The notes: generated by a model from the sequence alone, not told the origin. 32,000 nt of DNA from Propionibacterium freudenreichii subsp. freudenreichii (GCF_000940845.1 NZ_CP010341.1:1320001-1352000); one strand, 5' to 3'; numbered from the stretch's first letter, positions 1 to 28,916 are shown. Numbers and translations are program-made.

Positions 1-1152
1 CCGGCCAACACCCTGCAGGAATATCCGACCCCTGTGATCTGGGTGTTGCTGATCCCCTATCTGATCGGCTTCGGCAATGAACACGGCTATGTCATTGCGT
101 TCGTCTGCATGATGTTGGCCCTCGATGCACTGTTCTCGTGGTCGCTGTGGCACTCAGGTGGCTCCATGGGCGGGCAGGCGGTCGTCTTCTGGACACTGTT
201 CCTGGCCATGGTGGGACCCACCGCCTTCCTGCGCTTCGACCTGATCACCTCGGTGTTGGCGGGCTGGTCGATCATCTTCCTGTTGCGACGCCACAGCGCA
301 GTTGCCGGGGGCCTGACTGCGCTGGGGGCTTCGGTGAAACTCTGGCCGGCCCTGTTGTGGCCGGCGCTCCTACCGGGCCCGGCCAGGCAGAAGTTCCGGG
401 CCACGGCGGGCTTCCTGCTGACCGGGCTGGCCATGGTGGGGCTGTCGCTGCTGTACGCGGGGTGGGACCGACTGCTGTCGCCCCTCACCTGGCAGCAGGG
501 CCGTGGACTGCAGATCGAATCGGTGTGGGCGACCCTTCCGATGTTGGCCCGCACCGTCAACTCCGACAACTACGCCGTCACCCTGTCGCGGTACCAGGCC
601 TTCGAGATCTGGGGCCCGGGGGTGAACACCCTGCTCAGCGCCTCGGACATCTTCTTCGCCGGCGGGCTTGCCGTGGCGGTCCTGGCCTATCTCGTGTGGC
701 TGTGGCGCGGACACGGCCGCCTGATCGAGGCGGTCGTGCTGGTGCAGTTCGTGATCATCGTCATGATCGTGACGAACAAGACCTTTTCGCCCCAGTACAT
801 GATGTGGCTCGGCGGCCCGCAGGCGGCGGCATTCGCCGTCCTTGGCACACGCAGCCACCATGTGGAGGAGTTCTACGTCGACCGCTCCCGGCTCAACACG
901 CTGTCGATGTGGATCCTGGTGGCCACCTTCCTCACGCTGTTGGTCTATCCGATCAGCTATGACTTCCTGGTCAATGACTGGAATGTGCGCGACAGCCTGC
1001 TGAGGTTCCCGGCCACCCTGTTACTCGCCGCCCGCAACATCGTGGTGGTGATCGTCCTGATCGATGTCATCAGGTGGGTGTGGAGCTTCCTGAGGCCCCG
1101 GGCCGTGAAGGCCGTGCGACAACGCCGCCGTGGGGTCGAGGCCCCTCAGTGA
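1..1152 (+). CDS. Polytopic membrane protein, GT-C-type (GT87/DUF2029-like) glycosyltransferase paralog 1; 5' end lies outside the window
   Basis: The frame is open from base 1 (PANTLQEYPTPVIW...), so the listed 34..1152 ORF is only the internal part. The protein is strongly hydrophobic. It shares KLWPALL, SPLTWQxGRGLQIESVWATLPM and NKTFSPQYMMWL motifs with the next two genes. The family call is from memory of DUF2029/GT87 features (D..YY and EYPxP in the first loop) and has not been searched. Confidence 0.6.
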   Translation, partial: PANTLQEYPTPVIWVLLIPYLIGFGNEHGYVIAFVCMMLALDALFSWSLWHSGGSMGGQAVVFWTLFLAMVGPTAFLRFDLITSVLAGWSIIFLLRRHSAVAGGLTALGASVKLWPALLWPALLPGPARQKFRATAGFLLTGLAMVGLSLLYAGWDRLLSPLTWQQGRGLQIESVWATLPMLARTVNSDNYAVTLSRYQAFEIWGPGVNTLLSASDIFFAGGLAVAVLAYLVWLWRGHGRLIEAVVLVQFVIIVMIVTNKTFSPQYMMWLGGPQAAAFAVLGTRSHHVEEFYVDRSRLNTLSMWILVATFLTLLVYPISYDFLVNDWNVRDSLLRFPATLLLAARNIVVVIVLIDVIRWVWSFLRPRAVKAVRQRRRGVEAPQ

Positions 1153-1292
1153 GTCGCCAAGCACTTGACCGACGACCCGACTCCCGTCCACCCGCCAGCA
1201 TTCCGGTGACCCGGCCGGTGACAGCGAGTCGCCCGGAGACGGCGAGCGCCGGCGTCCGCCGGGGATGGCATCGCCGGTCCGGCATAGCGACC

Positions 1293-2588
1293 ATGCCACG
1301 TGTCCGCCCGAACGGCTGGTGGGCCGTGGTCGCCTGGATCGTGTCGCGATCCCTGATGGCGTGCCTGTTCATCAACCTGGGCAGTTACCTGCGCTCCGAT
1401 GTCATCTACTACTTCACCTCCGTGCAGGGCGCCAGTCCCATGCACCTGGCCGGGGTGCTGTCCGAGTATCCGGTACCGATCGTGTGGCTCATCCAGCTGC
1501 TGGCAGCGATCTCGGGGCCATCCGCCGATGTCTTCGTCTTCGTCTTCGCCGCAACGATGGGTGGGCTCGATGCCGCCTGTTGCCGATGGTTGTGGCGGCA
1601 CTCACCACGCGCCTGCAGCTTGTGGATCGCCTTCACCTTCCTGATCGGCCCGCTCATCTGGTTCCGCATCGACCTGGTGCCGGCCGCGTTGGTCCTGGCC
1701 GCGCTGACCATGACAACGCGGCGCCCGGCATGGTCCGGGGCGGCCGTCGCGCTGGGCGCGGCGACGAAGCTGTGGCCGGCACTGCTGATCGTTCCCCTGG
1801 CCGGCACGCGACGCAGCGCACGACGCCGCGCAGGCGGATTCCTGCTCGTGGGCGCACTGATCGGCACGGCCGTCGTGGTCAGTCAGGGTTTGGCCCGTTC
1901 GGCCTCTCCCCTCACCTGGCAGGCGACCCGGGGCCTGCAGATCGAGTCGGTGTGGGCGACGCTGCCGATGGTGCAACGGCTGGTGTCGCCCGATGACAGC
2001 TGGTCAGTGGCCGTCAGCAGTTTCCACGCCTACGAGATCTCCGGCCCGGGCGTGGCGGGATGGCTGCAGGTCTCTTCCGCCGCCACAGCCGCCCTGCTGG
2101 CGCTGACGGCGCTGCTCGGCTGGCTGATCGCCCTGGACGGCATGGGACTTCCGGGCCACCGACGCGCGCTGCCGGCCGATCCCGACCGTGACGCCCAGCG
2201 GCACGAAGCCATGCTGTGGGCATTGCTCGCAATCATCGTCGGCGTGATCGTGGCCAACAAGGCCTTCAGCCCCCAGTACATGATGTGGCTGGCGGGACCC
2301 CTGGCGATGTTGTGGGCCGAGGGCACCCGGGCCGGTTCCCGCAGGCCCGCACGGCGCGTGACCATCATGGCCCTCGCAGCGGCCGGCCTCACGCAGCTTG
2401 TCTTCCCGCTCAACTACACGGCCCTGGTCGGCGATCATCCCGGCGGGTTCGTGACCACGGTGCTGGTGGCCCGCAACCTGGTCATGGTCGGCCTGGCCCT
2501 GCACTGCACCCGACACGCCCTGCGGGCCGCGTGGCGGGTGGGCCTACGCAGCGATCCCGCCCCTGATTCCGGGAGAGAACTTGTCTGA
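1293..2588 (+). CDS. Polytopic membrane protein, GT-C-type (GT87/DUF2029-like) glycosyltransferase paralog 2
   Basis: Start chosen at ATG 1293 (MPRVRPNGWWAVVAWIV...), where the hydrophobic, paralog-alignable sequence begins. The first 73 codons of the listed ORF (from 1074) are Arg/Pro-rich noise overlapping paralog 1. Motifs: SDVIYY, EYPVPIVWL, KLWPALL, LTWQATRGLQIESVWATLPM, NKAFSPQYMMWL. Confidence 0.65.
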   Translation: MPRVRPNGWWAVVAWIVSRSLMACLFINLGSYLRSDVIYYFTSVQGASPMHLAGVLSEYPVPIVWLIQLLAAISGPSADVFVFVFAATMGGLDAACCRWLWRHSPRACSLWIAFTFLIGPLIWFRIDLVPAALVLAALTMTTRRPAWSGAAVALGAATKLWPALLIVPLAGTRRSARRRAGGFLLVGALIGTAVVVSQGLARSASPLTWQATRGLQIESVWATLPMVQRLVSPDDSWSVAVSSFHAYEISGPGVAGWLQVSSAATAALLALTALLGWLIALDGMGLPGHRRALPADPDRDAQRHEAMLWALLAIIVGVIVANKAFSPQYMMWLAGPLAMLWAEGTRAGSRRPARRVTIMALAAAGLTQLVFPLNYTALVGDHPGGFVTTVLVARNLVMVGLALHCTRHALRAAWRVGLRSDPAPDSGRELV

Positions 2589-3987
2589 GTCGAACACACC
2601 ATCCGGGTCGAACGCCCCCAGGCCCACCGCAGCGTCCGCCGACAACGGGTCCACGACGGGTGTGACCGTCACGATCGGCCCACCCGCCATCGCGGACGCC
2701 CGTACCGGGAGCTGGGTGGCACGCTTCCCCCTGCTGGTGGCCTTCTGGGCGCTGTCCCGCGTGGTCATGGCCTGCATCTTCATGACCGACCTGTGCAGCT
2801 ACATCCGCAACGACGTGCTCTACTACGGCACGGCGGTCGCCAGCTCACCGGTCCCCCTGCTCGACCGCATGACCAATGTGCTCGACGAGTACCCGACGCC
2901 GATCGTCGGGTTCCTCCAGGTGATCAACGCGTTGGCGGGCGGCTCCACGTCCACCTTCGTCTCCGTTTTCGTCCTCGTGCTCTGCCTGGCAGACGGTTTC
3001 GCCGTCGCTGCCCTGTTCTTCCGTGAATCGCCGCGAGCCGGCTGGGTCTGGGCGGCCGCGGGCCTGCTACTGGGGCCGCTGCTGTGGTTCCGCCTAGACC
3101 TGTTGCCGGCGCTGGCCGTGCTCGGGGCACTGCACTGGATGGATCGTCGCCCCAGGCTGGCCGGGGTGATGATCGCCCTTGGTGCCGCCCTGAAACTGTG
3201 GCCGGCCCTGCTGATCATTCCCATGATGGGCCGGGGCCGGCTGGCCCGCTCCCGAACGCTGGGCTTCGTGGTGGCCGGGCTGGTGCTCGGTCTCGGGTCG
3301 CTGCTGACGCAGGGCTGGGCACGCTCCGCCTCGCCACTGACCTACCAGGGGGATCGTGGCCTCCAGATCGAATCGGTGTGGGCCACGGTGCCGATGGTGC
3401 GGCGCGTCATCTCCGGTGATTCGGGGCTCACGGTCTTCTTCAGCCAGTACAAGGCCTATGAGGTGTCGGGCCCGGGCGTGGCCGGCTGGATCCAGGTCAG
3501 CGACCTGCTGCTCGTGGTGATGATCGTCGCCACCGTGGCGCTGGGATGGTTGATCGGCCTGCGCGGTGTCGGCCTGCGCGGGCATCGATGGGCTGCACCC
3601 GGTGAGAAGGACCTGGGGGCCATCGACTGGGCGATCCAGTTGTCGCTGCTGGCCATCATCTGCGGGGTCATCGTGGCGAACAAGACGCTCAGCCCGCAGT
3701 ACCTGATGTGGCTGTTCCCCTCGTTGGCGATCATCACGGCCCGCGCCCGTGGCGAGCGCCAACGCCGGGTCGTGCGGCGCATCCTGGCGTTCGCGGCGAC
3801 GTCGCTGGCCCTGACGCCCTGGGTGTTCCCGCTGGGCTACTCCGGGTTGATCTCCTCCACACCGAATGCAGGGGTTACCTGGCTGCTCGTGCTGCGCAAT
3901 CTCGGACTCGTTACGCTGACCGCATATTCATGGTTTGAGGCGTGGAGGGCGGCTGTTCGCAGCGGGGTTTTCGAACCCGAACTGTAG
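2581..3987 (+). CDS. Polytopic membrane protein, GT-C-type (GT87/DUF2029-like) glycosyltransferase paralog 3
   Basis: TTG start at 2581 overlaps the paralog 2 stop (2586-2588) and follows GGGAGAG at 2571-2577. Motifs: NDVLYY, EYPTPIVGFL, KLWPALL, LTYQGDRGLQIESVWATVPM, NKTLSPQYLMWL. The start codon is uncertain; the N-terminal ~45 aa are not hydrophobic. Confidence 0.65.
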   Translation: MSESNTPSGSNAPRPTAASADNGSTTGVTVTIGPPAIADARTGSWVARFPLLVAFWALSRVVMACIFMTDLCSYIRNDVLYYGTAVASSPVPLLDRMTNVLDEYPTPIVGFLQVINALAGGSTSTFVSVFVLVLCLADGFAVAALFFRESPRAGWVWAAAGLLLGPLLWFRLDLLPALAVLGALHWMDRRPRLAGVMIALGAALKLWPALLIIPMMGRGRLARSRTLGFVVAGLVLGLGSLLTQGWARSASPLTYQGDRGLQIESVWATVPMVRRVISGDSGLTVFFSQYKAYEVSGPGVAGWIQVSDLLLVVMIVATVALGWLIGLRGVGLRGHRWAAPGEKDLGAIDWAIQLSLLAIICGVIVANKTLSPQYLMWLFPSLAIITARARGERQRRVVRRILAFAATSLALTPWVFPLGYSGLISSTPNAGVTWLLVLRNLGLVTLTAYSWFEAWRAAVRSGVFEPEL

Positions 3988-4056: not shown

Positions 4057-7842
<3,786 letters not shown>

Positions 7843-8439: not shown

Positions 8440-9948
8440 TCAGACGCTGAGCGTCGACGCCGGCACCACGATGCGTGAGGTGGCTCCCGGACCGTCGGCA
8501 TTGTTGAACAGGGTGAACTCTCCCCCCAGATCGGCCACCAGGGTGGTGACGATGGAGGTACCGAGGCTGTTGGTGGCACCCATCTGGAAGCCCTCGGGCA
8601 GCCCCTCCCCCTCATCGACGACGTCGAGCACCAGGTCGCCGGCGGCATTGCGCTGGGGACGCACGAAGACATTTCCCGAATGGGTTGCCAGCCCGTGCTC
8701 GATGGCGTTCTGGCACAGCTCTGTGAGTATCAGGGACAGGGACGTGGCCACCTTGGCCGGCACGAGTCCGAAGCTTCCCTCACGCTTGGCGCGCACGGTG
8801 CCCGACGCCGCCGCAACGTCGCCGACCATCTGCAACAGCTTGTCGGCCACCTGGTCGAATTCTGCCTCCTCGTCGTAGCTCTGCGAGAGGATCTCGTGCA
8901 CCACGGCGATGGACTGGACCCGATTCGTGGCGTCGGTGAGTGCATTCTTGGCCTCGTCGGAGTGGGTACGGCGCGCCTGGAGGCGCAGCAGCGCGGCCAC
9001 TGTCTGGAGGTTGTTCTTCACCCGGTGGTGGATCTCACGGATCGTGGCGTCCTTGGTGACCAGCTCGCGTTCGCGGTCGCGCAGCTCGGTGATGTCGCGG
9101 CACAGCATCAGTACCCCGACCTGTCGCCCGTCCTTGCGCAGTTGCAGGACGCGGGCGCGGATGCACCCGGCATCGTTCTCCAGGTCGTACTCCCCGGCGA
9201 TGTCGGTGCGGAAGACTGACTGGCTGGGCTCCGATTCATGGTCGGCGAAGGTGCCCTCGCCGTGGGGGGACACCGCAAAGATGGACACCCGCAGGCTGTC
9301 GGGCGCCGGATGATGGACATCTTCGCCCACCAGGTCCCCCACCATCCCCAGTCGGCGATAGGCGGACACCGCGTTGGGACTGGCGTACTTGATGGCGCCG
9401 TCCATGCCCGCATAGATCAACCCATCGCCCACCCGCGGACTCATCGAGGGATCGCTGGCGGGGCTCACGGGATAGTCGGCGTGATGCACCATGTCGGTGA
9501 GGATGTCGGCGATTTCGAGGTAGTAGTCCTCCATCGCCCCCGGCGCACGCACGCCCATCCGGTTGGTGTGGCGTTCGACGACACCGATCACATCGCCGTG
9601 GCGCAGGATCGGGATGGCCCACACGTCCACCGGGATACCGGCCCGCAGCCGGTTGTTGCTCGTCTCGCTGACCTCGCGCGACATGAAGGCCTCGGTCACC
9701 AGCGAGTCGGGCTCGTAGCGGATCTCATCACCGACGACGTCATCCTCGAGCGCCGTCGGCCCGGTCACCGGACGCTGCTGGGCTGCGGCCCAGAAGACGT
9801 TCTCGTCCTCATCGGGGACCCACAGCACCAGGTCGGAGAACCTCATATCGGCCAGCAGGTGCCATTCACGGACCAGGGAGGTGAGCCACTCGCGATCATC
9901 CTCGTCGAGGACCGTGTGATCAGCCAGGACCCGGTTCATTGACACCAT
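8440..9948 (-). CDS. pdtaS: Soluble GAF/PAS sensor histidine kinase, PdtaS ortholog
   Basis: The kinase core has KDATIREIHHRVKNNLQTVAALLRLQARR (HisKA_2-type H-box) and ATPase motifs ELCQNAIEHG, DEGEGLP and SLGTSIV. It is collinear with ~500-aa M. tuberculosis PdtaS from M(VS)MNRVLADHTVL. Start is ATG 9948, or alternatively 9939. The upstream 130 codons of the listed 632-aa ORF are rejected. Confidence 0.88.
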   Translation of the reverse strand: MVSMNRVLADHTVLDEDDREWLTSLVREWHLLADMRFSDLVLWVPDEDENVFWAAAQQRPVTGPTALEDDVVGDEIRYEPDSLVTEAFMSREVSETSNNRLRAGIPVDVWAIPILRHGDVIGVVERHTNRMGVRAPGAMEDYYLEIADILTDMVHHADYPVSPASDPSMSPRVGDGLIYAGMDGAIKYASPNAVSAYRRLGMVGDLVGEDVHHPAPDSLRVSIFAVSPHGEGTFADHESEPSQSVFRTDIAGEYDLENDAGCIRARVLQLRKDGRQVGVLMLCRDITELRDRERELVTKDATIREIHHRVKNNLQTVAALLRLQARRTHSDEAKNALTDATNRVQSIAVVHEILSQSYDEEAEFDQVADKLLQMVGDVAAASGTVRAKREGSFGLVPAKVATSLSLILTELCQNAIEHGLATHSGNVFVRPQRNAAGDLVLDVVDEGEGLPEGFQMGATNSLGTSIVTTLVADLGGEFTLFNNADGPGATSRIVVPASTLSV

Positions 9949-10092
9949 GGGACCAACTTTATGCGGTGGACAGCTCCCTGCCCTGCCCCCGGGCCCGGGC
10001 TGGTCGTGGTGGGCCGGTCGCCCACCATGTGCCTGCGCTGGCGGCCCCGGGGCGCGGGTTTTCGCGGCGATGGCCTGTTTGGGGCAGGGACT

Positions 10093-10104
10093 TGCCACGT
10101 GGCA
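10093..10104. promoter_or_regulatory. Perfect 12-bp palindrome TGCCACGTGGCA in the pdtaS / bL37 divergent intergenic region (candidate operator)
   Basis: Read directly from the sequence. It is exactly self-complementary and lies 88 nt upstream of the bL37 ATG and 145 nt upstream of the pdtaS ATG. No binding protein is known to me. Confidence 0.3.
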
Positions 10105-10191
10105 GAATTGGAATCCACGCCCGTAGACCTCGGTATGCGGGGATACTTGAATTGCGCCGAACCCCCGGTTCGGCTGCGGGATGGAGGGCCT

Positions 10192-10266
10192 ATGGGAAAG
10201 ACCGGACGCAAGCGTCGTGCTCGCCGAAAGAATGCCGCCAACCACGGCAAGCGACCCAACGCCTAA
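10192..10266 (+). CDS. 24-aa highly basic peptide, probable actinobacterial large-subunit ribosomal protein bL37
   Basis: ATG 10192 to TAA 10264-10266 encodes MGKTGRKRRARRKNAANHGKRPNA. GGAGGG sits at 10183-10188. A strong hairpin terminator begins 18 nt after the stop. The length, charge and C-terminal ANHGKRPN(A/S) match my recollection of mycobacterial bL37. In the ORF track it is hidden as the tail of the 9961..10266 ORF. Confidence 0.7.
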   Translation: MGKTGRKRRARRKNAANHGKRPNA

Positions 10267-10283
10267 TTTCTGACCACTACTAC

Positions 10284-10324
10284 CGATGATGCCGGCACCC
10301 CCAGTGGGGATGCCGGCATCATCG
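10284..10324. terminator. Strong bidirectional hairpin between bL37 and rshA
   Basis: Perfect 14-bp stem: cgatgatgccggca (10284-10297) and tgccggcatcatcg (10311-10324). Four further C:G pairs form inside the loop (cccc agt gggg). Confidence 0.75.
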
Positions 10325-10433
10325 TCTGTCAACTGCATTGTCTGTCAGCCACATCTCCCTGGCGCGACACCCGGGGACGAAACCGCGAGGATCATCGTCG
10401 CGGACCCACCGGAGCCTGACGCCCGGGCGGGGT

Positions 10434-15707: not shown

Positions 15708-17441
15708 TCAGCGGGGCCCGGGCGCTCCCATGGCGCCACCCATCGTGTTGCCGGTCGACTGATTCGCCGTGACCGTGGTGGCGGAGCCACCATTGACGCT
15801 CACCAGGTAGCTTGAGCCGGCGCTGATCGCCGAGGAGCTGAAGACGATGTTCCCGGTTGCCTTGGCCACGGTGTAGCTGGCGATCTGGGTGCCGTCGGTG
15901 GTGGAGATCGTCACGCTCTGCCCGGCACTGGCCGTGAGTTCGCTCTGGAGCCAGGCCTGTGACGAATCCGTGTCGGGGCTCTCGGCCATGCCCGAGCTCC
16001 CTGCTGCGAACAGCGTTCCGCCGCTGATCCTCAGCGTGCCACCGGTGTCCAGGGCACCATTGCCCGAGTCGGTCGGTCCGTTCACGACGATGGTGCCGCC
16101 GCTGATCGTCATGGCGCCATTGGAATCCAGTCCATCGCCGCCCGCGTCGACCGTGATCGCCCCGCCGGTGATCACCATCGTGGAGTTCGACGCCGACCCG
16201 GCGCCGGGATCGTCGGCCTCGCCGGAGCCGTCGGAGGCATTGATGCCATCATCGGAGCTCGTGATGTTGATCGTCGCGGCGTTGAGGGTGATGGCGTTGG
16301 ACTCCAGGCCCTCATAGCTCGCGGTCACGTCGATGGTGCCGCCGTTGGTGGTCAGGGCGTTGTCGGCGTGGATGGCGTCATCGCCGGTGGACAGCTTGAG
16401 CGTGCCGCCGTCGATCTGCACGGTGTCGTTGCTGTGCACCGCGTCGTCGGACGAGGTGATGGTGTCGGTCCCATCGCTGATGACCAGCTGCGCCCCGGCC
16501 TTGATGCCCTTGGTGGACGCGGCATCGGTGCTGTCGCTGGGCCTGCTGGACGAACCGCCGGCGGTCGTGATCGTCAAGGAGGCGCCCGTCTGGACGAAAT
16601 CGCTGGTGACGTCCACGCCGTCACCCGCGGTCGCATTGACCGCGATGGTGCCGTTCTCGATGTCCACATAGCCACGCGTGGAGTCCTGCGAGTTGTCCGA
16701 CTTGATGCCGTCCCCGCCGCTGGTCACGTTGATGGTGCCATCCTCCACGATCACATAGTCCTTGCCCCTGATGCCGTCATCAATGGCCTGGACCCGAATC
16801 GTGCCCGAGACGATCACCAGGCCGTCGGTGGAGGCGATGCCGTCGTTGGTCCTCCCGTCGACGCTCAGGGAACCCGTGCCGGCGATCGTCAGGTCGGCAC
16901 GCGAATACAGCGCCGCGTTGGCCGCGCCGTCGGCGCTCGTGTCATAGCCGGATCCGTCGGTCAGCGTGTTCTGCGATCCGTCGGCAAGGATCACGTTCAC
17001 CTCGTCGGCAGCCTGGATGTCGATCGCCGGGCCGCTGCTCGACGTGATGTCGGCGCCGTCGAGGATGATGCGGGTCTCGCCGGAGGCTGTTGAGTTCACC
17101 ACGAGCCGTCCGTCGGTGAGCTGCCCCGAGACCTTGTAGGTGCCCGGCTCGGTGATGGTGACGGTTGAACCATCGATGCCCACGCCCGGGCCGCTGGCGG
17201 ACGCGGAGCTCCCCGACAGGGTCACCGTCACCACCGAGGATGCCTCATAGTCAAGGTCGCTCGCCTTGTAGTGCGAGTCCTTGTTGTCGGCCAACACCGA
17301 TTGCGCACTCGACGAGACGCTGGTGGCCGCGGCCTGCGCGGAGGCGGTCGTGGTGGGGCTGGACGCGGTGGTCGCGCCGCAGCCGGTCAGCGTGGCCGCG
17401 ACGGCGAGCGCGGCCAGTCTCTTCTGCCATGACAAGTTCAT
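15708..17441 (-). CDS. Surface lipoprotein with Cthe_2159-type beta-helix carbohydrate-binding repeats (DUF4353/PF14262-like)
   Basis: Signal peptide MNLSWQKRLAALAVAATLTG|C with a lipobox, followed by a Ser/Thr/Ala linker. More than 10 short coils follow, carrying DGI/DDGI/DDAI/GDG motifs (NDGIAS, DDGIRG, GDGIKS, DDAVHS, DDAIHA, DDGINA, GDGLDS) and SYEGLES. The start overlaps the stop of the upstream VTC gene (ATGA at 17438-17441). Confidence 0.75.
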   Translation of the reverse strand: MNLSWQKRLAALAVAATLTGCGATTASSPTTTASAQAAATSVSSSAQSVLADNKDSHYKASDLDYEASSVVTVTLSGSSASASGPGVGIDGSTVTITEPGTYKVSGQLTDGRLVVNSTASGETRIILDGADITSSSGPAIDIQAADEVNVILADGSQNTLTDGSGYDTSADGAANAALYSRADLTIAGTGSLSVDGRTNDGIASTDGLVIVSGTIRVQAIDDGIRGKDYVIVEDGTINVTSGGDGIKSDNSQDSTRGYVDIENGTIAVNATAGDGVDVTSDFVQTGASLTITTAGGSSSRPSDSTDAASTKGIKAGAQLVISDGTDTITSSDDAVHSNDTVQIDGGTLKLSTGDDAIHADNALTTNGGTIDVTASYEGLESNAITLNAATINITSSDDGINASDGSGEADDPGAGSASNSTMVITGGAITVDAGGDGLDSNGAMTISGGTIVVNGPTDSGNGALDTGGTLRISGGTLFAAGSSGMAESPDTDSSQAWLQSELTASAGQSVTISTTDGTQIASYTVAKATGNIVFSSSAISAGSSYLVSVNGGSATTVTANQSTGNTMGGAMGAPGPR

Positions 17442-18249
17442 GATGATTCGCTCCTCATTGTGGCGGCCGCGGTCTCAGGGCGGCCTTCGCGTAGTCGTGA
17501 CCGGAGATGTCCGATGGTCGAATGCCACCGGTTGTGGGGCAGCCCGGGCTCAAGGATGGCCAGGCCGGTGGCGAACTTGCTGAAACGGTGGGGCCGAACC
17601 CCGATCGACCACAGCAGGTGGTCCACCCGGCCCGGTGCCATGCCCGCCGACTTCGTCTCCACCACCGTCAGCTCACCCAGCCGCACCGCGCGGACATCAT
17701 CGGCCGAGGTCCAGATGAGTCTGCGGTCGAGGGTGACCCGCGTCCCGCTGCCCGGTTCGACCAGGGTGGTCCGCAGATAGGACGTGTTGAGCCGGGGCGC
17801 CAGGGCATCCAGCGGGACAGACGGCATGCCGCACACGGACAATGCCCGGTGCATCTCGTGGCGGTCCCCGGCGCTCCACCGGCCACGCTCGGCGACGTCG
17901 ATCTGCAGGCGTTGCTTGACGGTCCGTTCCCCACGACAGGTCTTCACCTCGAGCCACCGCATGCCGCTGTCGAGGTAGTCGCGCTCGCGGATCTTCCATC
18001 GTCGCCGGCGTCCCCGCGCCGAGGCGAGGTAGCTGTCCTGGCCGGGGGTGTCGAAGTAGACCGACACATAGCGGAACTCCCGGATGCCTGCGATCGTGAG
18101 GACCCTGCTGTCAGCGGGCAGGGCCCGAGGAAGGTCCGCACCTCGGCCGGGGTCGCCAGGTATTTCCTGTCCACCCGCGTCTGCAGGGCGGCGGTGCGGT
18201 TCAGCTCGTCGAGTCCGATATCCGCCAGATCGGTGATCGTCCTGCTCAT
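17438..18249 (-). pseudogene. VTC-domain (CYTH/triphosphate-tunnel, polyphosphate-polymerase-like) protein gene interrupted by a 1-nt frameshift
   Basis: ATG 18249 gives MSRTITDLADIGLDELNRTAALQTRVDRKYLATPAEVRTFL (frame of ORF 17944..18249). The homologous sequence then continues in the -1 frame (ORF 17438..18484) as ALPADSRVLTIAGIREFRYVSVYFDT, RRRWKIRERDY, WLEVK, TVKQR, VVETK and SKF. The span is 812 nt (3n-1). It is either a real pseudogene or an assembly error. Confidence 0.75.
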
Positions 18250-18881
18250 GCGACGGCCTCACGCGCACCGGGAACCTCACGCTCCGCACAGGGCACCGGG
18301 GCACGACCATCCACCGCGATGTCCGGGGCGCCGCCAGCCCGTGATCCGGGCCGGAAGCGCACCTCCACCAATGTCGTGTCGTTGACGAAGTCGAGGCGCT
18401 GCACGGACACCGACAGGATCCGCCCGCCCAGGCGCTCCCCCAGCGCCGCGCGCAGCTGCGCCGCATCGGGATACGCCCGATCAAGGGCCACCACCTGGCG
18501 CTGCATCCCGCGCCCGATCCACCGGGAGTCGCTGATGCAGGTGACCGCCACGATCAACGCCATGAGGGGCACCGAATACCCCAGTGGCACGTCCACTCCG
18601 CCGAGCAGGCCCAGCGCCAGCGCGCTGAAATAGTAGGCGGTCTCGATCTGGCTCAGCTCCTCCGAACGGAGCCGGATGATCGACAACACCCCGAACAGGC
18701 CCAGGCCGAGCCCGGCTGCAACACTGCTCACCGACAAGGCCGTGGAAACTGCCAGCACGCCGACGTTGACGCTCAGATAGGCCACGACCATGTCGCGTCG
18801 GTGGTGGCGCGGCAGGTAGACGGCGAAGGTCAGGATGACGATCATCAAGGCGTCGGCGCCAAGGGCAACAAGGTCGGTCAT
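18246..18881 (-). CDS. DUF4956-like small polytopic membrane protein
   Basis: 211 aa. It has several hydrophobic helices and the GLFGVLSIIRLRSEELSQIETAYYF motif I associate with DUF4956, plus a soluble C-terminal ~90 aa. AGGAG lies 7 nt upstream of ATG 18881. Its stop overlaps the VTC start (ATGA 18246-18249). Confidence 0.7.
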   Translation of the reverse strand: MTDLVALGADALMIVILTFAVYLPRHHRRDMVVAYLSVNVGVLAVSTALSVSSVAAGLGLGLFGVLSIIRLRSEELSQIETAYYFSALALGLLGGVDVPLGYSVPLMALIVAVTCISDSRWIGRGMQRQVVALDRAYPDAAQLRAALGERLGGRILSVSVQRLDFVNDTTLVEVRFRPGSRAGGAPDIAVDGRAPVPCAEREVPGAREAVA

Positions 18882-19037
18882 GGGTGGCTCCTGATTCGGA
18901 ATGGATGACGTTGAATCAACCCGCCGCCGCTGTCGGTTCTCTGTGCTGGAATCGGCATGTGCCTATGCACCTGACGTGCCAGAGGAAACCCAGCGAATCC
19001 CCTGCCGGTGCACATTTGTCGCGGGAAGTGTGTGGCC

Positions 19038-19985
19038 ATGACTCACTTACCCAGCAGGTTCTCCCGGCGCGCGGTCCTCACCGGGGCAGGCGTCGCCGTC
19101 GCCGGTGGCGGCGCGGCATGGGCCGCGGAGAGATTCCTCATTCCCCATGTGGAGAACTCGGACGTCGCGGCTGCCGAGGCCGCAGCCAGCGCCTCCAATT
19201 CATCCAGCACCGGACAGATGGCGGCCGACCGGCGCGAGATCGGCACCAACTACTACCGCAACGGACAGACCCAGCTGACCATCGCCAACCACAGCTCCGG
19301 CAACGGCTCCGATGCGCTGGCCTGGTTCGTCGCCGATCTGCGCATGGGCGATGCCACGGTGCTTCGATCGGCCTTCGCCAACAACCAGTTCGGTGAGAAC
19401 ATCACCCAGGACCCCTCCACGATCGCCACGGCGCATGATGCCGTCTTCGCCGTGAACGGGGACTACTACGGATTCCGTGATGACGGCATTGAGGTGCGCA
19501 ATGGCGTCGCCTGGCGCGACAAGGGCACCCGGCAGGGTCTGTCGCTGTACCGCGACGGCGCGGTACGCCTGTATGACGAGACCGCGACGAACGCGGCACA
19601 GTTGGTGTCCGAGGGTGTCTGGAACACCCTGTCGTTCGGTCCCGGCGTGGTCGCCGACTCGCAGGTCGTCGCGGGAATCGACCAGGTGGAGGTCGATACC
19701 AATGTCGGCAACCACTCCATCCAGGGGGACCAGCCCCGCACGGGGATCGGATACCTGGCCGATGGTCACCTCGCGCTGCTGGTCGTGGACGGGCGCAGCG
19801 AGGGATACTCGCGCGGCGTCACGCTGCCCGAATTCGCGCAGATGTTCGTGGACCTCGGTGCCCGGACCGCCTACAACCTGGACGGCGGTGGCTCGTCGGT
19901 CATGTACTTCAACGGGTCGCTGGTCAACAACCCATTGGGCACAGGCCGGGAACGCGGCGTATCCGACATCCTCTACCTGGCGTGA
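19038..19985 (+). CDS. Tat-secreted phosphodiester glycosidase family protein (NAGPA/DUF2233-like)
   Basis: 315 aa from ATG 19038. It has a twin-arginine signal (MTHLPSRFSRRAVLTGAGVAVAGGGAAWA). FAVNGDYYGFRDDGIEVRNG and AYNLDGGGSSVMYFNG are typical of the family. GGGAAG RBS at 19023-19028. Confidence 0.78.
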   Translation: MTHLPSRFSRRAVLTGAGVAVAGGGAAWAAERFLIPHVENSDVAAAEAAASASNSSSTGQMAADRREIGTNYYRNGQTQLTIANHSSGNGSDALAWFVADLRMGDATVLRSAFANNQFGENITQDPSTIATAHDAVFAVNGDYYGFRDDGIEVRNGVAWRDKGTRQGLSLYRDGAVRLYDETATNAAQLVSEGVWNTLSFGPGVVADSQVVAGIDQVEVDTNVGNHSIQGDQPRTGIGYLADGHLALLVVDGRSEGYSRGVTLPEFAQMFVDLGARTAYNLDGGGSSVMYFNGSLVNNPLGTGRERGVSDILYLA

Positions 19986-19994
19986 GGGAGCGTC

Positions 19995-21153
19995 ATGCCC
20001 GTTCTCGTACCCAGCTTCCAGCCGGATCGCCGGCTTGTAGAACTCGTGGGTGACCTGCAGGCACATCCCGACACGAGCGACATCCTGATCGTCAACGACG
20101 GCTCCGGACCGGACTACTCCGCGCTGTTCGCCGCGGCTGCGGCGGCCGACGCCACCGTCATCGGCTATCCCGACAACCGGGGTAAGGGACACGCGCTGCG
20201 GGCGGGCTTCGCCTGGGCGATCGCCAACCGCCCCGGGGAGCCCGTGGTGTGCGCCGACTCGGACGGGCAGCACGCCGCGGCGGACATCAGGGCCGTGGCC
20301 AGGGCCACGGCCCTGATGTCCGCAGGCCTGGTCCTCGGCACGAGGAACTTCGGCTCTCCCCGCGCCCAGCCGGATGCCGAGGGGATCCCGTGGCGCAGCC
20401 GCCTGGGTAACAGGGCGACGGCCCGGCTCTTCGCGTGGGTGACCGGCCTCCACCTGGGCGACACCCAAACGGGCCTTCGGGGGTTGCCCCGCGCCCATGC
20501 TCGGCTGGCTGTGCACCGTCCCCGGCGAGCGCTTCGACTATGAGTTCAGGGTGCTGCTCGAGGCCCACCAAGCGGGCTGGCCCATTGTCGAGATCCCGAT
20601 CACCACCGTCTATTCGCAGCACAATGAATCGTCGCATTTCAGACCAATTCGTGACTCGGCACGCATCTATGCCCCGTTGGTCGGCCACATTGCGCGCTCG
20701 GGGTCCGGGCGTCTGCTGGTCTTTGGCGCCTCCAGCTTCGGGGCCTTCCTGGTGGACCTGGTGCTCCTGCTCCATGCGACCCTCGGGAACCTCCTGGTGT
20801 CCGTGGTGGGCGCCAGACTGGTCAGCTCCGCCGCTAACTACCTGGTGAACGATCGGATCGTCTTCGCCCACGGTGTGGGACGACGCACAACCCGAACCTC
20901 CCTGCCCCGATATGCGCTACTGGCGGGCGTACTGCTGGGTGCCAACTACGGCCTCATGTGGCTTGGCACGGTGCCGCTGCACCTACCGTTGGTGCTCACT
21001 AAATTAGCCACAGAGCTGGGCCTGTTCGCCGTCAGCTACGTGGTGCAGCGCACGCTGGTCTTCATGGGACGCCGAGCACGCACCACGCCCCCCACCTCTG
21101 GACCGGTGAAGGACGTGGTCGCTCGGCGAACCGACGTGCGCGTCAGCGAATGA
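19995..21153 (+). pseudogene. Bifunctional GT2 glycosyltransferase / GtrA-like membrane module gene interrupted by a 1-nt frameshift
   Basis: ORF 19995..20543 carries the N-terminal GT2 half (VPSF, IVNDGSGPDY, DNRGKGHAL, CADSDGQH, DTQTGLRG). ORF 20497..21153, in the +1 frame, continues the same catalytic domain (MLGWLCTVPGERFDYEFRVLLEA, IVEIPITTVY, SSHFRPIRDS) and then a 4-helix GtrA-like tail. The span is 1159 nt (3n+1). The shift lies between 20479 and 20497, a region with G5, C4 and C3 runs. Confidence 0.8.
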
Positions 21154-27726: not shown

Positions 27727-27760
27727 CGTGCCGGTGTCCCAGTCGTGCCGGTGTCCCAGT
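27727..27760. repeat. Perfect 17-bp tandem duplication (cgtgccggtgtcccagt x2) in the bioB 3' flank
   Basis: Copies at 27727-27743 and 27744-27760 are identical and directly abutting. They lie 11 nt downstream of the bioB stop codon (27771-27773). Confidence 0.9.
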
Positions 27761-27770
27761 ACTCATCGAC

Positions 27771-28916
27771 TCACACGTTCGGCACCCGGGCGGTACCGGC
27801 CCCGCGCAACCGGATCGGGACCCCGTCCCCATCCAACCTGTCATGGGACTGCGCCGCGCGCAGCCCGTCCAGTTCCTCTTCCACTGCCTGGCGGGCCCGC
27901 TCGTGGTTGCCCCGGCCGAAGCAGATCCCGCCGTCCCCATCACTGGCGTCGACGATGTGGAAGCCCGCGTCGCGAATCATCGACAGGTCGTCATTGCCGG
28001 TCTGCCCCTCGCTGGTCAAGTAGTCACCCAGGAAGATGGAATTGCACACCTCCAGCACCAACGGCTGCAGGGTGCGAACGTGGTATTCCCGTCCGGCCGC
28101 CGAGCGGAGCTCACTGTCGGGGTGGACCAAGCGCATCATCGACAGGATGCGCAGGCACCGCTGCGGGGTGAGCTCCCGGTGGGAATGCAGCGGCGTGCCC
28201 TCGAAGGGAAGCAGGAAGTTCACCGGCACCGACTCGGCGCCGAGCTCCCGCAGTGCGAAGGCCACCTCCACGAGTTCCTCGTCGGTCTCCCCCATCCCCG
28301 CAATGAGGCCGGAGCAGGCGCTGATGCCGGCCCGCTGGGCGGTCTGCACCGTGTTGACCCGATCGGCATAGCTGTGGGTGGAGCAGATGTCGGAATAGTG
28401 CTCCTCGGCGGTGTTGAGGTTGTGGTTGTAGCGATCAGACCCGGCCGCAGCCAGCTGCTCGGCCTTGTCGTCATCGAGGAAGCCCAGGCAGGTGCAGATG
28501 TGCAGCCCCGGATGTTCGGCGTGGATGCGGGCGACAATGCCCGCCACCTTGGCCACCTCGCGACGTGACGGCCCCCTCCCCGAGGCGACCAAGCAGACGG
28601 TGGAGGCACCATGCGACACACCCATCTCGACCGCCTCGTGCACCTGGTCATCGGTGAGCCAGGTGTAGCGCAGGATGTCGGCATCCGAACCCAACGACTG
28701 GGAACAATAGGAGCAATTCTCCGGGCACATGCCCGACTTCAGGCTGACCAGGTAATTCAGCCGCACGCCACGGCCGAAGAAACGACGACGCACCTTCCCG
28801 GCAGCGGCGACGATCGACAGCGTCTCGGCGTCATCGGCCGCCAACACCTCCAGTGCCTCGTCGCGGGTGATCGACGTCCCACGCATGGCGGTGGCGGTCA
28901 TCTGTTCCAGATCCAT
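27771..28916 (-). CDS. bioB: Biotin synthase (radical SAM)
   Basis: Radical-SAM motif [17 protein letters not shown] (CxxxCxxC). Other BioB-typical motifs: [17 protein letters not shown] and VPVNFLLP. It is 381 aa with a ~55-aa low-complexity C-terminal tail. Confidence 0.92.

Follow-up and report, generated by a model that had tools for sequence, protein, structure and literature searches.

In bacteria, the synthesis of polyphosphate is credited to PPK1 and PPK2, and VTC is regarded as belonging to eukaryotes. The closest bacterial arrangement described so far lies at Gram-positive pel loci, where cotH, a "poly-phosphate polymerase" gene and a DUF4956 gene are contiguous accessory genes (Whitfield et al., PMC7112168 / 10.1101/768473). 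In Streptococcus intermedius these genes are SIR_1594, SIR_1593 and SIR_1592, respectively, and the study of this organism reports that the trio is not found outside pel loci (PMC12345266). In Clostridium perfringens, the NELoc-2 locus carries two pairs of VTC and "tubulin/FtsZ" genes beside a CotH gene (PMC2879425); the "tubulin/FtsZ" products, membrane proteins of 222-226 aa, are presumably DUF4956 proteins. What is already known is the cotH-VTC-DUF4956 trio beside pel loci only (PMC7112168, PMC12345266). Here we analyze a 32,000-nucleotide stretch of the Propionibacterium freudenreichii subsp. freudenreichii genome (GCF_000940845.1 NZ_CP010341.1:1320001-1352000; GC content ~67%), hereafter the window, in which three minus-strand genes spanning positions 15708-18881 encode, in the order of transcription, a DUF4956 membrane protein, a VTC-domain protein and a Cthe_2159-family lipoprotein. 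Like the S. intermedius set, this locus combines the VTC and DUF4956 pair with a secreted or lipoprotein partner; unlike the pel accessory sets, which adjoin pelDEADAFG, it has no pel genes in the window, and the position of CotH is held by Cthe_2159, as in most Actinomycetota. A CotH hidden Markov model (HMM) found no match anywhere in the 32 kb.

Judged from sequence, the trio is the P. freudenreichii copy of a conserved, widespread three-part envelope module. Across 130 bacterial homologs, the catalytic tunnel of yeast Vtc4 was kept, and the VTC gene adjoined genes for DUF4956 and a surface lipoprotein. The initial annotation of the window had described minus-strand packing with two ATGA stop/start overlaps and an AGGAG before the first gene, all of which can be read in the sequence: the TGA of the DUF4956 gene overlaps the ATG of the VTC gene (ATGA, 18249-18246), and the TGA of the VTC gene overlaps the ATG of the Cthe_2159 gene (ATGA, 17441-17438). 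The three families that it had named, namely DUF4956, VTC and Cthe_2159, were all recovered by Pfam searches, while NCBIfam held a model for none of the three products.

The VTC assignment was clear at the level of the family. An intact ortholog (P0001) scored 80.7 bits with PF09359, for which the cut-off is 23, and spanned profile positions 2-234 of 235; the C-terminal frame of the window copy, which carries a frameshift considered below, scored 77.4 bits (E 1.6e-21). In the intact 270-aa protein, the VTC domain was the sole match, and no signal peptide, transmembrane (TM) segment or SPX domain was detected. A single-sequence search of the PDB with this protein returned nothing, and Vtc4 was reached by profile only: a profile built from 27 actinobacterial homologs of the intact protein matched the catalytic domain of yeast Vtc4 (3g3q, E 3.4e-9). 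The alignment of this profile to Vtc4 (3g3q/8i6v) paired K29 with K200, R88 with R264, R90 with R266, K103 with K281, K112 with K294, Y158 with Y359, R160 with R361, and R171 with R373, the native Vtc4 numbering being confirmed by the alignment coordinates. We take these eight Vtc4 residues to be the catalytic tunnel residues, and their equivalents were invariant in 27/27 actinobacterial homologs.

Conservation of the tunnel extended to a further sample of 50 VTC genes adjoining Cthe_2159 in metagenomes with GC contents of 25-77%. In these, R25, K29, Y65, D67, K86, R88, R90, Y92, E101, K103, K112, R160, R171, T173, D175, E198, and K200 were invariant and R114, S224, and K225 nearly so, with position 158 occupied by Tyr or Phe. 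The VVETK and SKF motifs were likewise invariant and lie in a region that the Pfam match spans but the HMMER alignment to Vtc4 does not; a C-terminal sub-profile aimed at aligning E426, S457, and K458 of Vtc4 gave no PDB match. The AlphaFold2 (AF2) model of the intact ortholog was of high confidence (pLDDT 91.4, pTM 0.89), and in a Foldseek search of the PDB its best nine matches were all Vtc4 (3g3r, 8i6v; E 2e-12 to 6e-11, TM-score ~0.6), followed by Vtc3, Vtc2, and then YgiF (8e-9), CyaB-type, and other triphosphate tunnel metalloenzymes (TTMs). The tunnel Lys and Arg residues on which the initial annotation had staked its proposal, together with a Glu placed by motif, are present in intact orthologs and invariant in distant relatives, and we consider it established by these sequence comparisons that the predicted Vtc4-like tunnel enzyme is under strong purifying selection at its catalytic residues. 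In a library of 1.84 billion representatives clustered at 50% identity, the VTC profile matched 10,181 clusters at E<=1e-3, of which 4,201 reached E<=1e-10; this library is unannotated, and some of the weaker matches are probably Vtc proteins of eukaryotes. Four long VTC matches (P0379, P0331, P0278, and P0262) contained the VTC domain only, with no fusion of DUF4956 to VTC.

The first gene had been called a DUF4956 membrane protein with an LSIIRLRSE motif, and this description was borne out by the presence of the motif and by a match to PF16316 of 192.6 bits (cut-off 30.6, E 5.7e-57) over profile positions 1-169 of 169. Its AF2 model (pLDDT 78) comprises five predicted TM helices (residues 2-25, 29-49, 53-72, 78-95, and 100-118) and a beta-alpha-beta-beta (ACT-like) domain at residues 127-178 that was modeled with a pLDDT of ~90. 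Conservation among 40 homologs covered the PRHHRRD motif that follows helix 1, the Gly-rich stretch GLGLGLFGVL of helix 3, and IIRLRSEE..Q.E in the turn joining helices 3 and 4. By the positive-inside rule, the charged motifs and the C-terminal domain would be cytoplasmic. A single-sequence PDB search with DUF4956 returned nothing, and a Foldseek search of the PDB with the model gave no significant match, including to the VTC cryo-EM entries, while the C-terminal domain showed weak local matches to ACT-type and ferredoxin-like domains. Because Foldseek gave no significant PDB match, DUF4956, as modeled, is unrelated to the three-helix Vtc1-type membrane domain. The label "MgtC-like" that has been applied to DUF4956 (PMC12345266) was rejected for want of sequence support from either Pfam or hhalign: DUF4956 had no Pfam match to MgtC (PF02308) at E<=10, and hhalign against E. 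coli YhiD, itself a PF02308 protein (E 5e-39), returned a probability of 0.2% in a single-sequence, low-power comparison.

The third product was confirmed as a 577-aa lipoprotein of the Cthe_2159 family. It matched PF14262 in two stretches with 314.6 bits (cut-off 25.8, E 6.2e-94), and residues 85-293 are homologous to Cthe_2159 itself (PDB 4peu_A, E 3.2e-37), with a second Cthe_2159-like half behind them. The lipobox LTG/C lies at codons 18-21 (17379-17390), and its Cys21 was kept in at least 97% of 56 orthologs and was invariant in a 15-sequence alignment. Conserved across the 56 orthologs were the Asp-rich motifs DGI, DDG..GKD, DDA, S.EG.E, DDG.N, and GDG.DSNG.

The linkage of the three genes was surveyed from two anchors. 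In the VTC-anchored survey, the VTC profile was applied to one genome per species, giving 80 loci from Propionibacteriales, Micrococcales, Actinomycetales, Micromonosporales, Kineosporiales, Nocardioidaceae, and Acidimicrobiia, of which the 70 with enough flanking sequence were counted using HMMs built from clustered neighbors (the CotH cluster was confirmed with Pfam). DUF4956 was encoded directly upstream of VTC in 68/70 loci and was adjacent in another arrangement in the remaining two. Cthe_2159 was found in 53/70 loci, in 50 of them directly downstream of VTC, and a CotH kinase in 17/70, such that one or the other was present in 64/70 (both in six, neither in six); 14/15 CotH neighbors carried a lipobox. 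An OmpR-type two-component system was encoded in 13/70 loci.

The Cthe_2159-anchored survey scanned metagenomes with a Cthe_2159 alignment and yielded 80 loci with GC contents of 25-77%, including 33 fully flanked loci with at least 2.5 kb on each side. VTC lay within 6 kb in 27/33 of the fully flanked loci and VTC together with DUF4956 in 24/33, while 58/80 of all loci contained VTC and/or DUF4956. Writing D, V, and C for DUF4956, VTC, and Cthe_2159, the gene orders were D-V-C, C-V-D, V-D-C, or a divergent V-D pair beside C. Since adjacency was kept despite varying order and orientation, functional coupling is favored over inherited synteny. Taken together, the two surveys indicate strong linkage whether VTC or Cthe_2159 is the anchor, in agreement with the co-occurrence anticipated by the initial annotation; they establish that DUF4956 is an essentially obligatory partner of VTC and that a Cthe_2159 or CotH lipoprotein is the usual extracytoplasmic partner. 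They also contradict the claim that the trio is confined to pel loci, as the VTC and DUF4956 pair is widespread without pel.

Several individual arrangements were recorded in these surveys. The full Arthrobacter-type string encodes a response regulator, a histidine kinase, NAGPA, GT2-GtrA, DUF4956, VTC, Cthe_2159, and CotH. The same eight-gene arrangement occurs at a locus with 65% GC recorded under Sporosarcina beigongshangi (L047), which is probably a contaminant or mislabeled assembly rather than a Firmicute locus. Actinomyces bowdenii (L016, 7254-12379) has two tandem DUF4956-VTC pairs followed by one Cthe_2159 gene, an arrangement that resembles the duplicated VTC-"tubulin/FtsZ" pairs of C. 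perfringens NELoc-2. In lower-GC relatives, a pair of OmpR-type response regulator and histidine kinase genes adjoins the trio in 12/33 fully flanked metagenome loci, and no such pair was found in the nine high-GC loci of this subset. The neighboring two-component systems fell below all equivalog cut-offs and received no PhoPR assignment.

These data can be accommodated by a model in which a polyphosphate polymerase is docked on a membrane partner and serves an extracytoplasmic lipoprotein, a model that we favor tentatively and with somewhat less than even confidence. A Vtc4-like cytoplasmic enzyme would, most likely, make polyphosphate by polymerizing the gamma-phosphate of nucleoside triphosphates. 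On the translationally coupled DUF4956 protein, this enzyme would dock at the conserved, Arg-rich motifs of the cytoplasmic side and at the ACT-like domain. The product, or a signal, would cross the membrane by way of the Gly-rich helices of DUF4956, and an extracytoplasmic lipoprotein partner would then bind or use the product. This partner would be Cthe_2159, with Asp-rich and probably Ca2+-binding coils, here and in most Actinomycetota, and a CotH kinase elsewhere. The predicted topology fits this scheme, as VTC is predicted to have neither signal peptide nor TM segment, the DUF4956 motifs to be cytoplasmic, and Cthe_2159 to be a lipoprotein. We infer each of its steps, namely a polyphosphate product, a DUF4956-VTC complex, membrane crossing, and receipt by the lipoprotein; in our analysis, synthesis of polyphosphate at the inner face coupled to delivery at the outer face would be the most economical mechanism. 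P. freudenreichii accumulates polyphosphate and has ppk, and the list of polyphosphate enzymes in its genome paper does not include the VTC gene (PMC2909200). Since PPK is already present for cytoplasmic polyphosphate, a second synthase suggests a distinct role. In a broader version that we regard as rather doubtful, a PPK-independent VTC-type synthase and DUF4956 would deliver polyphosphate to the outside, where lipoproteins would capture it or use it as a donor: Cthe_2159 beta-helices would hold it as a surface polyanion, and CotH kinases would take it as phosphoryl donor in a compartment free of ATP.

Several observations weigh against this model. DUF4956 has no detected similarity to a Vtc1-type channel or to any solved transporter, so translocation is a step that we purely infer. 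The equivalence of VTC residues to E426, S457, and K458 is based on motifs only, no DUF4956-VTC fusion was present among the homologs searched, and the loci surveyed are phylogenetically non-independent, with many from Arthrobacter. The ligands documented for Cthe_2159, as cited in 10.1101/401869, are cellulose and polygalacturonate and not polyphosphate. In S. intermedius, deletion of the DUF4956 gene raised Pel and deletion of the CotH gene lowered it, while deletion of the VTC gene SIR_1593 caused no aggregation phenotype (PMC12345266). The literature searched contained no biochemical data on bacterial VTC-domain proteins and no paper defining the biochemical function of such a protein or of DUF4956; the initial statement that the pair has no defined function accordingly held, except that its accessory link to pel had already been noted.

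A further point against the model is the VTC copy in the window, which is frameshifted. The frame starting at 18249 reads MSRTITD...RVDRKYLATPAEVRTFLG and then continues into out-of-frame sequence; RVDRKY lies in this first frame, and the remainder of the domain, LPADSRVLTIAGIREFRYVSVYFDT...WLEVK...VVETK...SKF, is encoded in a different frame. The initial annotation was therefore right about the family of the second gene but not about its being a single open reading frame (ORF), as the motifs that it listed span both frames. One G is missing from a GGGG run (CCC on the plus strand, 18124-18126) relative to six other P. freudenreichii strains, all of which (6/6) encode the same intact 270-aa protein; a search via the truncated product found no second assembly on record with the same frameshift. 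The neighboring GT2-GtrA gene, a fusion with a weak PpgS-like NCBIfam match, is likewise divided into ORFs at 19995-20543 (182 aa) and 20497-21153 (218 aa), because the G-run at 20479-20483 contains one G too many. Three strains have this gene whole (387 aa), and three others share the split state of the window; homopolymer frameshifts have thus hit two genes of the same neighborhood in the window strain. A low-quality assembly was rejected as the cause of the VTC frameshift: over 20.6 kb, the window differs from the closest strain by just two indels, the G deletion and a 17-bp duplication near 27760, so that the G deletion stands alone, either as a loss-of-function mutation specific to this strain or as one miscalled base in a homopolymer.

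Given the VTC deletion and the split GT2-GtrA gene, the module is probably inactive or decaying in the window strain, unless the deletion is a sequencing error. It is an even question in our estimate whether the locus is a decaying remnant in this strain, with both frameshifts real and the three genes without a current role. The absence of the VTC deletion from the six other strains, the sharing of the GT2-GtrA frameshift by three strains, the record of strain-specific frameshift pseudogenes in P. freudenreichii (PMC2909200), and an assembly that does not appear error-prone, with two indels relative to the nearest strain, all point to a remnant; however, a single homopolymer miscall is possible, and the DUF4956 and Cthe_2159 genes on either side are undamaged, with ~99.9% identity to the copies of other strains. 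Such a remnant would in any case account for the window copy only and not for the function of the module. On that function, it is conceivable, although we hold it unlikely, that the genes form a surface-glycan modification module whose real substrate is an envelope polysaccharide, with VTC and DUF4956 supplying or regulating phosphate and without free surface polyphosphate. The roles that would follow, with GT2-GtrA making polyprenyl-phosphate sugars, NAGPA trimming, and the pectate-lyase-like Cthe_2159 binding or cleaving, seem to us improbable to the same degree, as does the example of VTC and DUF4956 providing the phosphoryl donor for an extracellular CotH kinase. NAGPA and GT2-GtrA do accompany the trio in 33/70 VTC loci, exclusively at loci with Cthe_2159 (33/33 vs. 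0/17), but more than half of the loci lack the pair, which was found in 0/33 fully flanked and 3/80 of all metagenome loci, and the trio persists without it. Similarly, VTC-DUF4956-CotH adjoins pel genes in Firmicutes and Bifidobacteria, and DUF4956 and CotH mutants alter Pel, but the actinobacterial loci have no recurrent polysaccharide synthase gene, of the pel type or otherwise. Cthe_2159 resembles lyases of polysaccharide lyase family 9 (PL9) and binds polygalacturonate, and the look of its invariant DDG..GKD and Asp-rich motifs is that of a Ca2+/Lys site; against this, the invariance of the polymerase tunnel residues suggests that VTC is an active enzyme and not a regulator in an accessory role.

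A purely cytoplasmic sensor or regulator appears quite unlikely. VTC would then bind or hydrolyze triphosphate or short polyphosphate and control an MgtC-like DUF4956 without any export, and DUF4956, with similarly little likelihood, would modulate phosphate homeostasis or envelope functions via its ACT-type ligand domain. Most members of the TTM superfamily are hydrolases and cyclases, and the structural matches of VTC to YgiF and CyaB-type enzymes are significant too, but the best matches are specifically to Vtc4, and the equivalent of Lys200, which distinguishes the polymerase, is invariant. DUF4956 has the layout described as MgtC-like, in which an ACT-like domain is joined to five TM helices (PMC12345266), yet no sequence similarity to MgtC was found (Pfam E<=10; hhalign vs. 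YhiD 0.2%). OmpR/PhoB-type two-component systems are frequent neighbors (13/70 and 12/33), although all fall below the equivalog cut-offs, and a sensor would leave the near-obligatory extracytoplasmic lipoprotein partner unexplained.

If these proteins do make polyphosphate and export it, this would establish a new route of polyphosphate synthesis and a means by which cells could set a polyanion or phosphoryl donor on their outside. It would also explain the link to streptococcal Pel biofilm loci and to the virulence locus NELoc-2 of C. perfringens, and cast new light on the Cthe_2159 family and on secreted CotH proteins. Were the broader, PPK-independent version to hold, it would be the first system for the export of polyphosphate in bacteria, and three large families known by domain name only would gain a function. 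The hypothesis is directly testable with standard polyphosphate assays.

Table 1. Features of the DUF4956-VTC-Cthe_2159 locus and its divergent neighbors (positions counted from the first letter of the window).
Feature	Position	Strand	Basis
AGGAG ribosome-binding site	18888..18892	-	6 nt 5' of the DUF4956 ATG at 18881; sequence reading
DUF4956 membrane protein, 211 aa	18246..18881	-	PF16316, AF2 model, 40-homolog conservation
VTC-domain (Vtc4-like triphosphate tunnel) gene, 1-nt deletion	17438..18249	-	PF09359; two frames; intact in six strains
Frameshift site, GGG vs. GGGG in six other strains	18124..18126	-	Strain alignment (L001-L006)
Cthe_2159-family beta-helix lipoprotein, 577 aa	15708..17441	-	PF14262, PDB 4peu, 56 orthologs
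Divergent intergenic region, DUF4956 operon / NAGPA	18882..19037	.	ORF map; gene calls of other strains
Phosphodiester glycosidase (NAGPA family)	19038..19985	+	PF09992, E 1e-33
GT2-GtrA fusion, polyprenyl-phosphate sugar synthase type, split	19995..21153	+	PF00535, PF04138

The coordinates of the locus are given in Table 1. The 211-aa DUF4956 product is identical, and has the same neighbors, in complete P. freudenreichii genomes of 2.5-2.7 Mb, and a plasmid megablast gave no match. A promoter scan did not find a sigma-70 consensus in the divergent intergenic region, and the promoter and terminator scan returned no minus-strand signals. The neighbors of the trio in the window are NAGPA, GT2-GtrA, serA, an inositol monophosphatase gene, rsgA, and aroA; NAGPA orthologs carry an N-terminal membrane anchor, and the window NAGPA has either an anchor or a Tat-like signal. 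Three tandem paralogous genes for GT87-family membrane glycosyltransferases, which depend on polyprenyl-phosphate sugars, lie at 34-3987 (plus strand), ahead of a gene for a fused OdhA/Kgd 2-oxoglutarate dehydrogenase (4057-7842); what the GT2-GtrA enzyme, encoded at a distance of 16 kb, produces might serve these glycosyltransferases as substrate. Among strain differences elsewhere in the window, the 17-bp tandem duplication, GTGCCGGTGTCCCAGTC (plus strand, ~27743-27776), is present in the window only and absent in 6/6 compared strains, and it sits immediately 3' of the gene for biotin synthase (27771-28916, minus strand). A 16-bp indel, TGACTGACGATGTAGC, at ~10332 is missing in the window and in the compared strain L001 and present in the five others; it lies near the predicted start (10338) of an ORF for a PdtaS-type histidine kinase (8440-10338).

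The three products can each be set beside better-described proteins. MgtC/SapB proteins have a layout like that of DUF4956, a small ACT-like domain in the cytoplasm coming after about five TM helices, but they belong to a different Pfam family and share no detectable sequence relationship with it. For MgtC, a link to the homeostasis of phosphate and ATP has been described. E. coli YgiF and CyaB-type CYTH/TTM proteins share the superfamily fold of VTC (Foldseek E 8e-9 to 1e-5), more weakly than Vtc4 does, and the N-terminal strand of VTC, R-x-D-R-K-Y, resembles the R-x-T-T-K-Y of Vtc4 and not the E-x-E-x-K of the hydrolases. Cthe_2159 of Clostridium thermocellum (4peu) is of the same right-handed beta-helix family as the P. 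freudenreichii lipoprotein, and both have an N-terminal lipobox-like sequence. Unlike the clostridial protein, the P. freudenreichii protein has 577 aa, a second half, and an operon shared with VTC and DUF4956; binding of cellulose and pectate is documented for the clostridial protein only.

The yeast VTC complex (3g3q/3g3r, 7ytj, 8i6v), which joins the catalytic tunnel domain of Vtc4 to a Vtc1/2/3 membrane channel, has the same PF09359 domain, tunnel fold, and eight aligned tunnel residues as the P. freudenreichii VTC protein, and in both systems a cytoplasmic enzyme is combined with a membrane component whose far side is topologically non-cytoplasmic. None of the refuting conditions attached to the initial proposal of a split analogue of this complex applied, and the proposal is partly supported, but as an analogy only, DUF4956 being unlike the Vtc1-type domain. 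Unlike its yeast counterpart, the P. freudenreichii enzyme lacks an SPX domain and a fused three-helix Vtc1-type domain; its membrane partner is a separate protein that is unrelated to that domain and combines five TM helices with an ACT-like fold, and an extracytoplasmic lipoprotein belongs to the set. The machine that we propose is thus analogous to the yeast VTC complex, with a membrane part that is not homologous.

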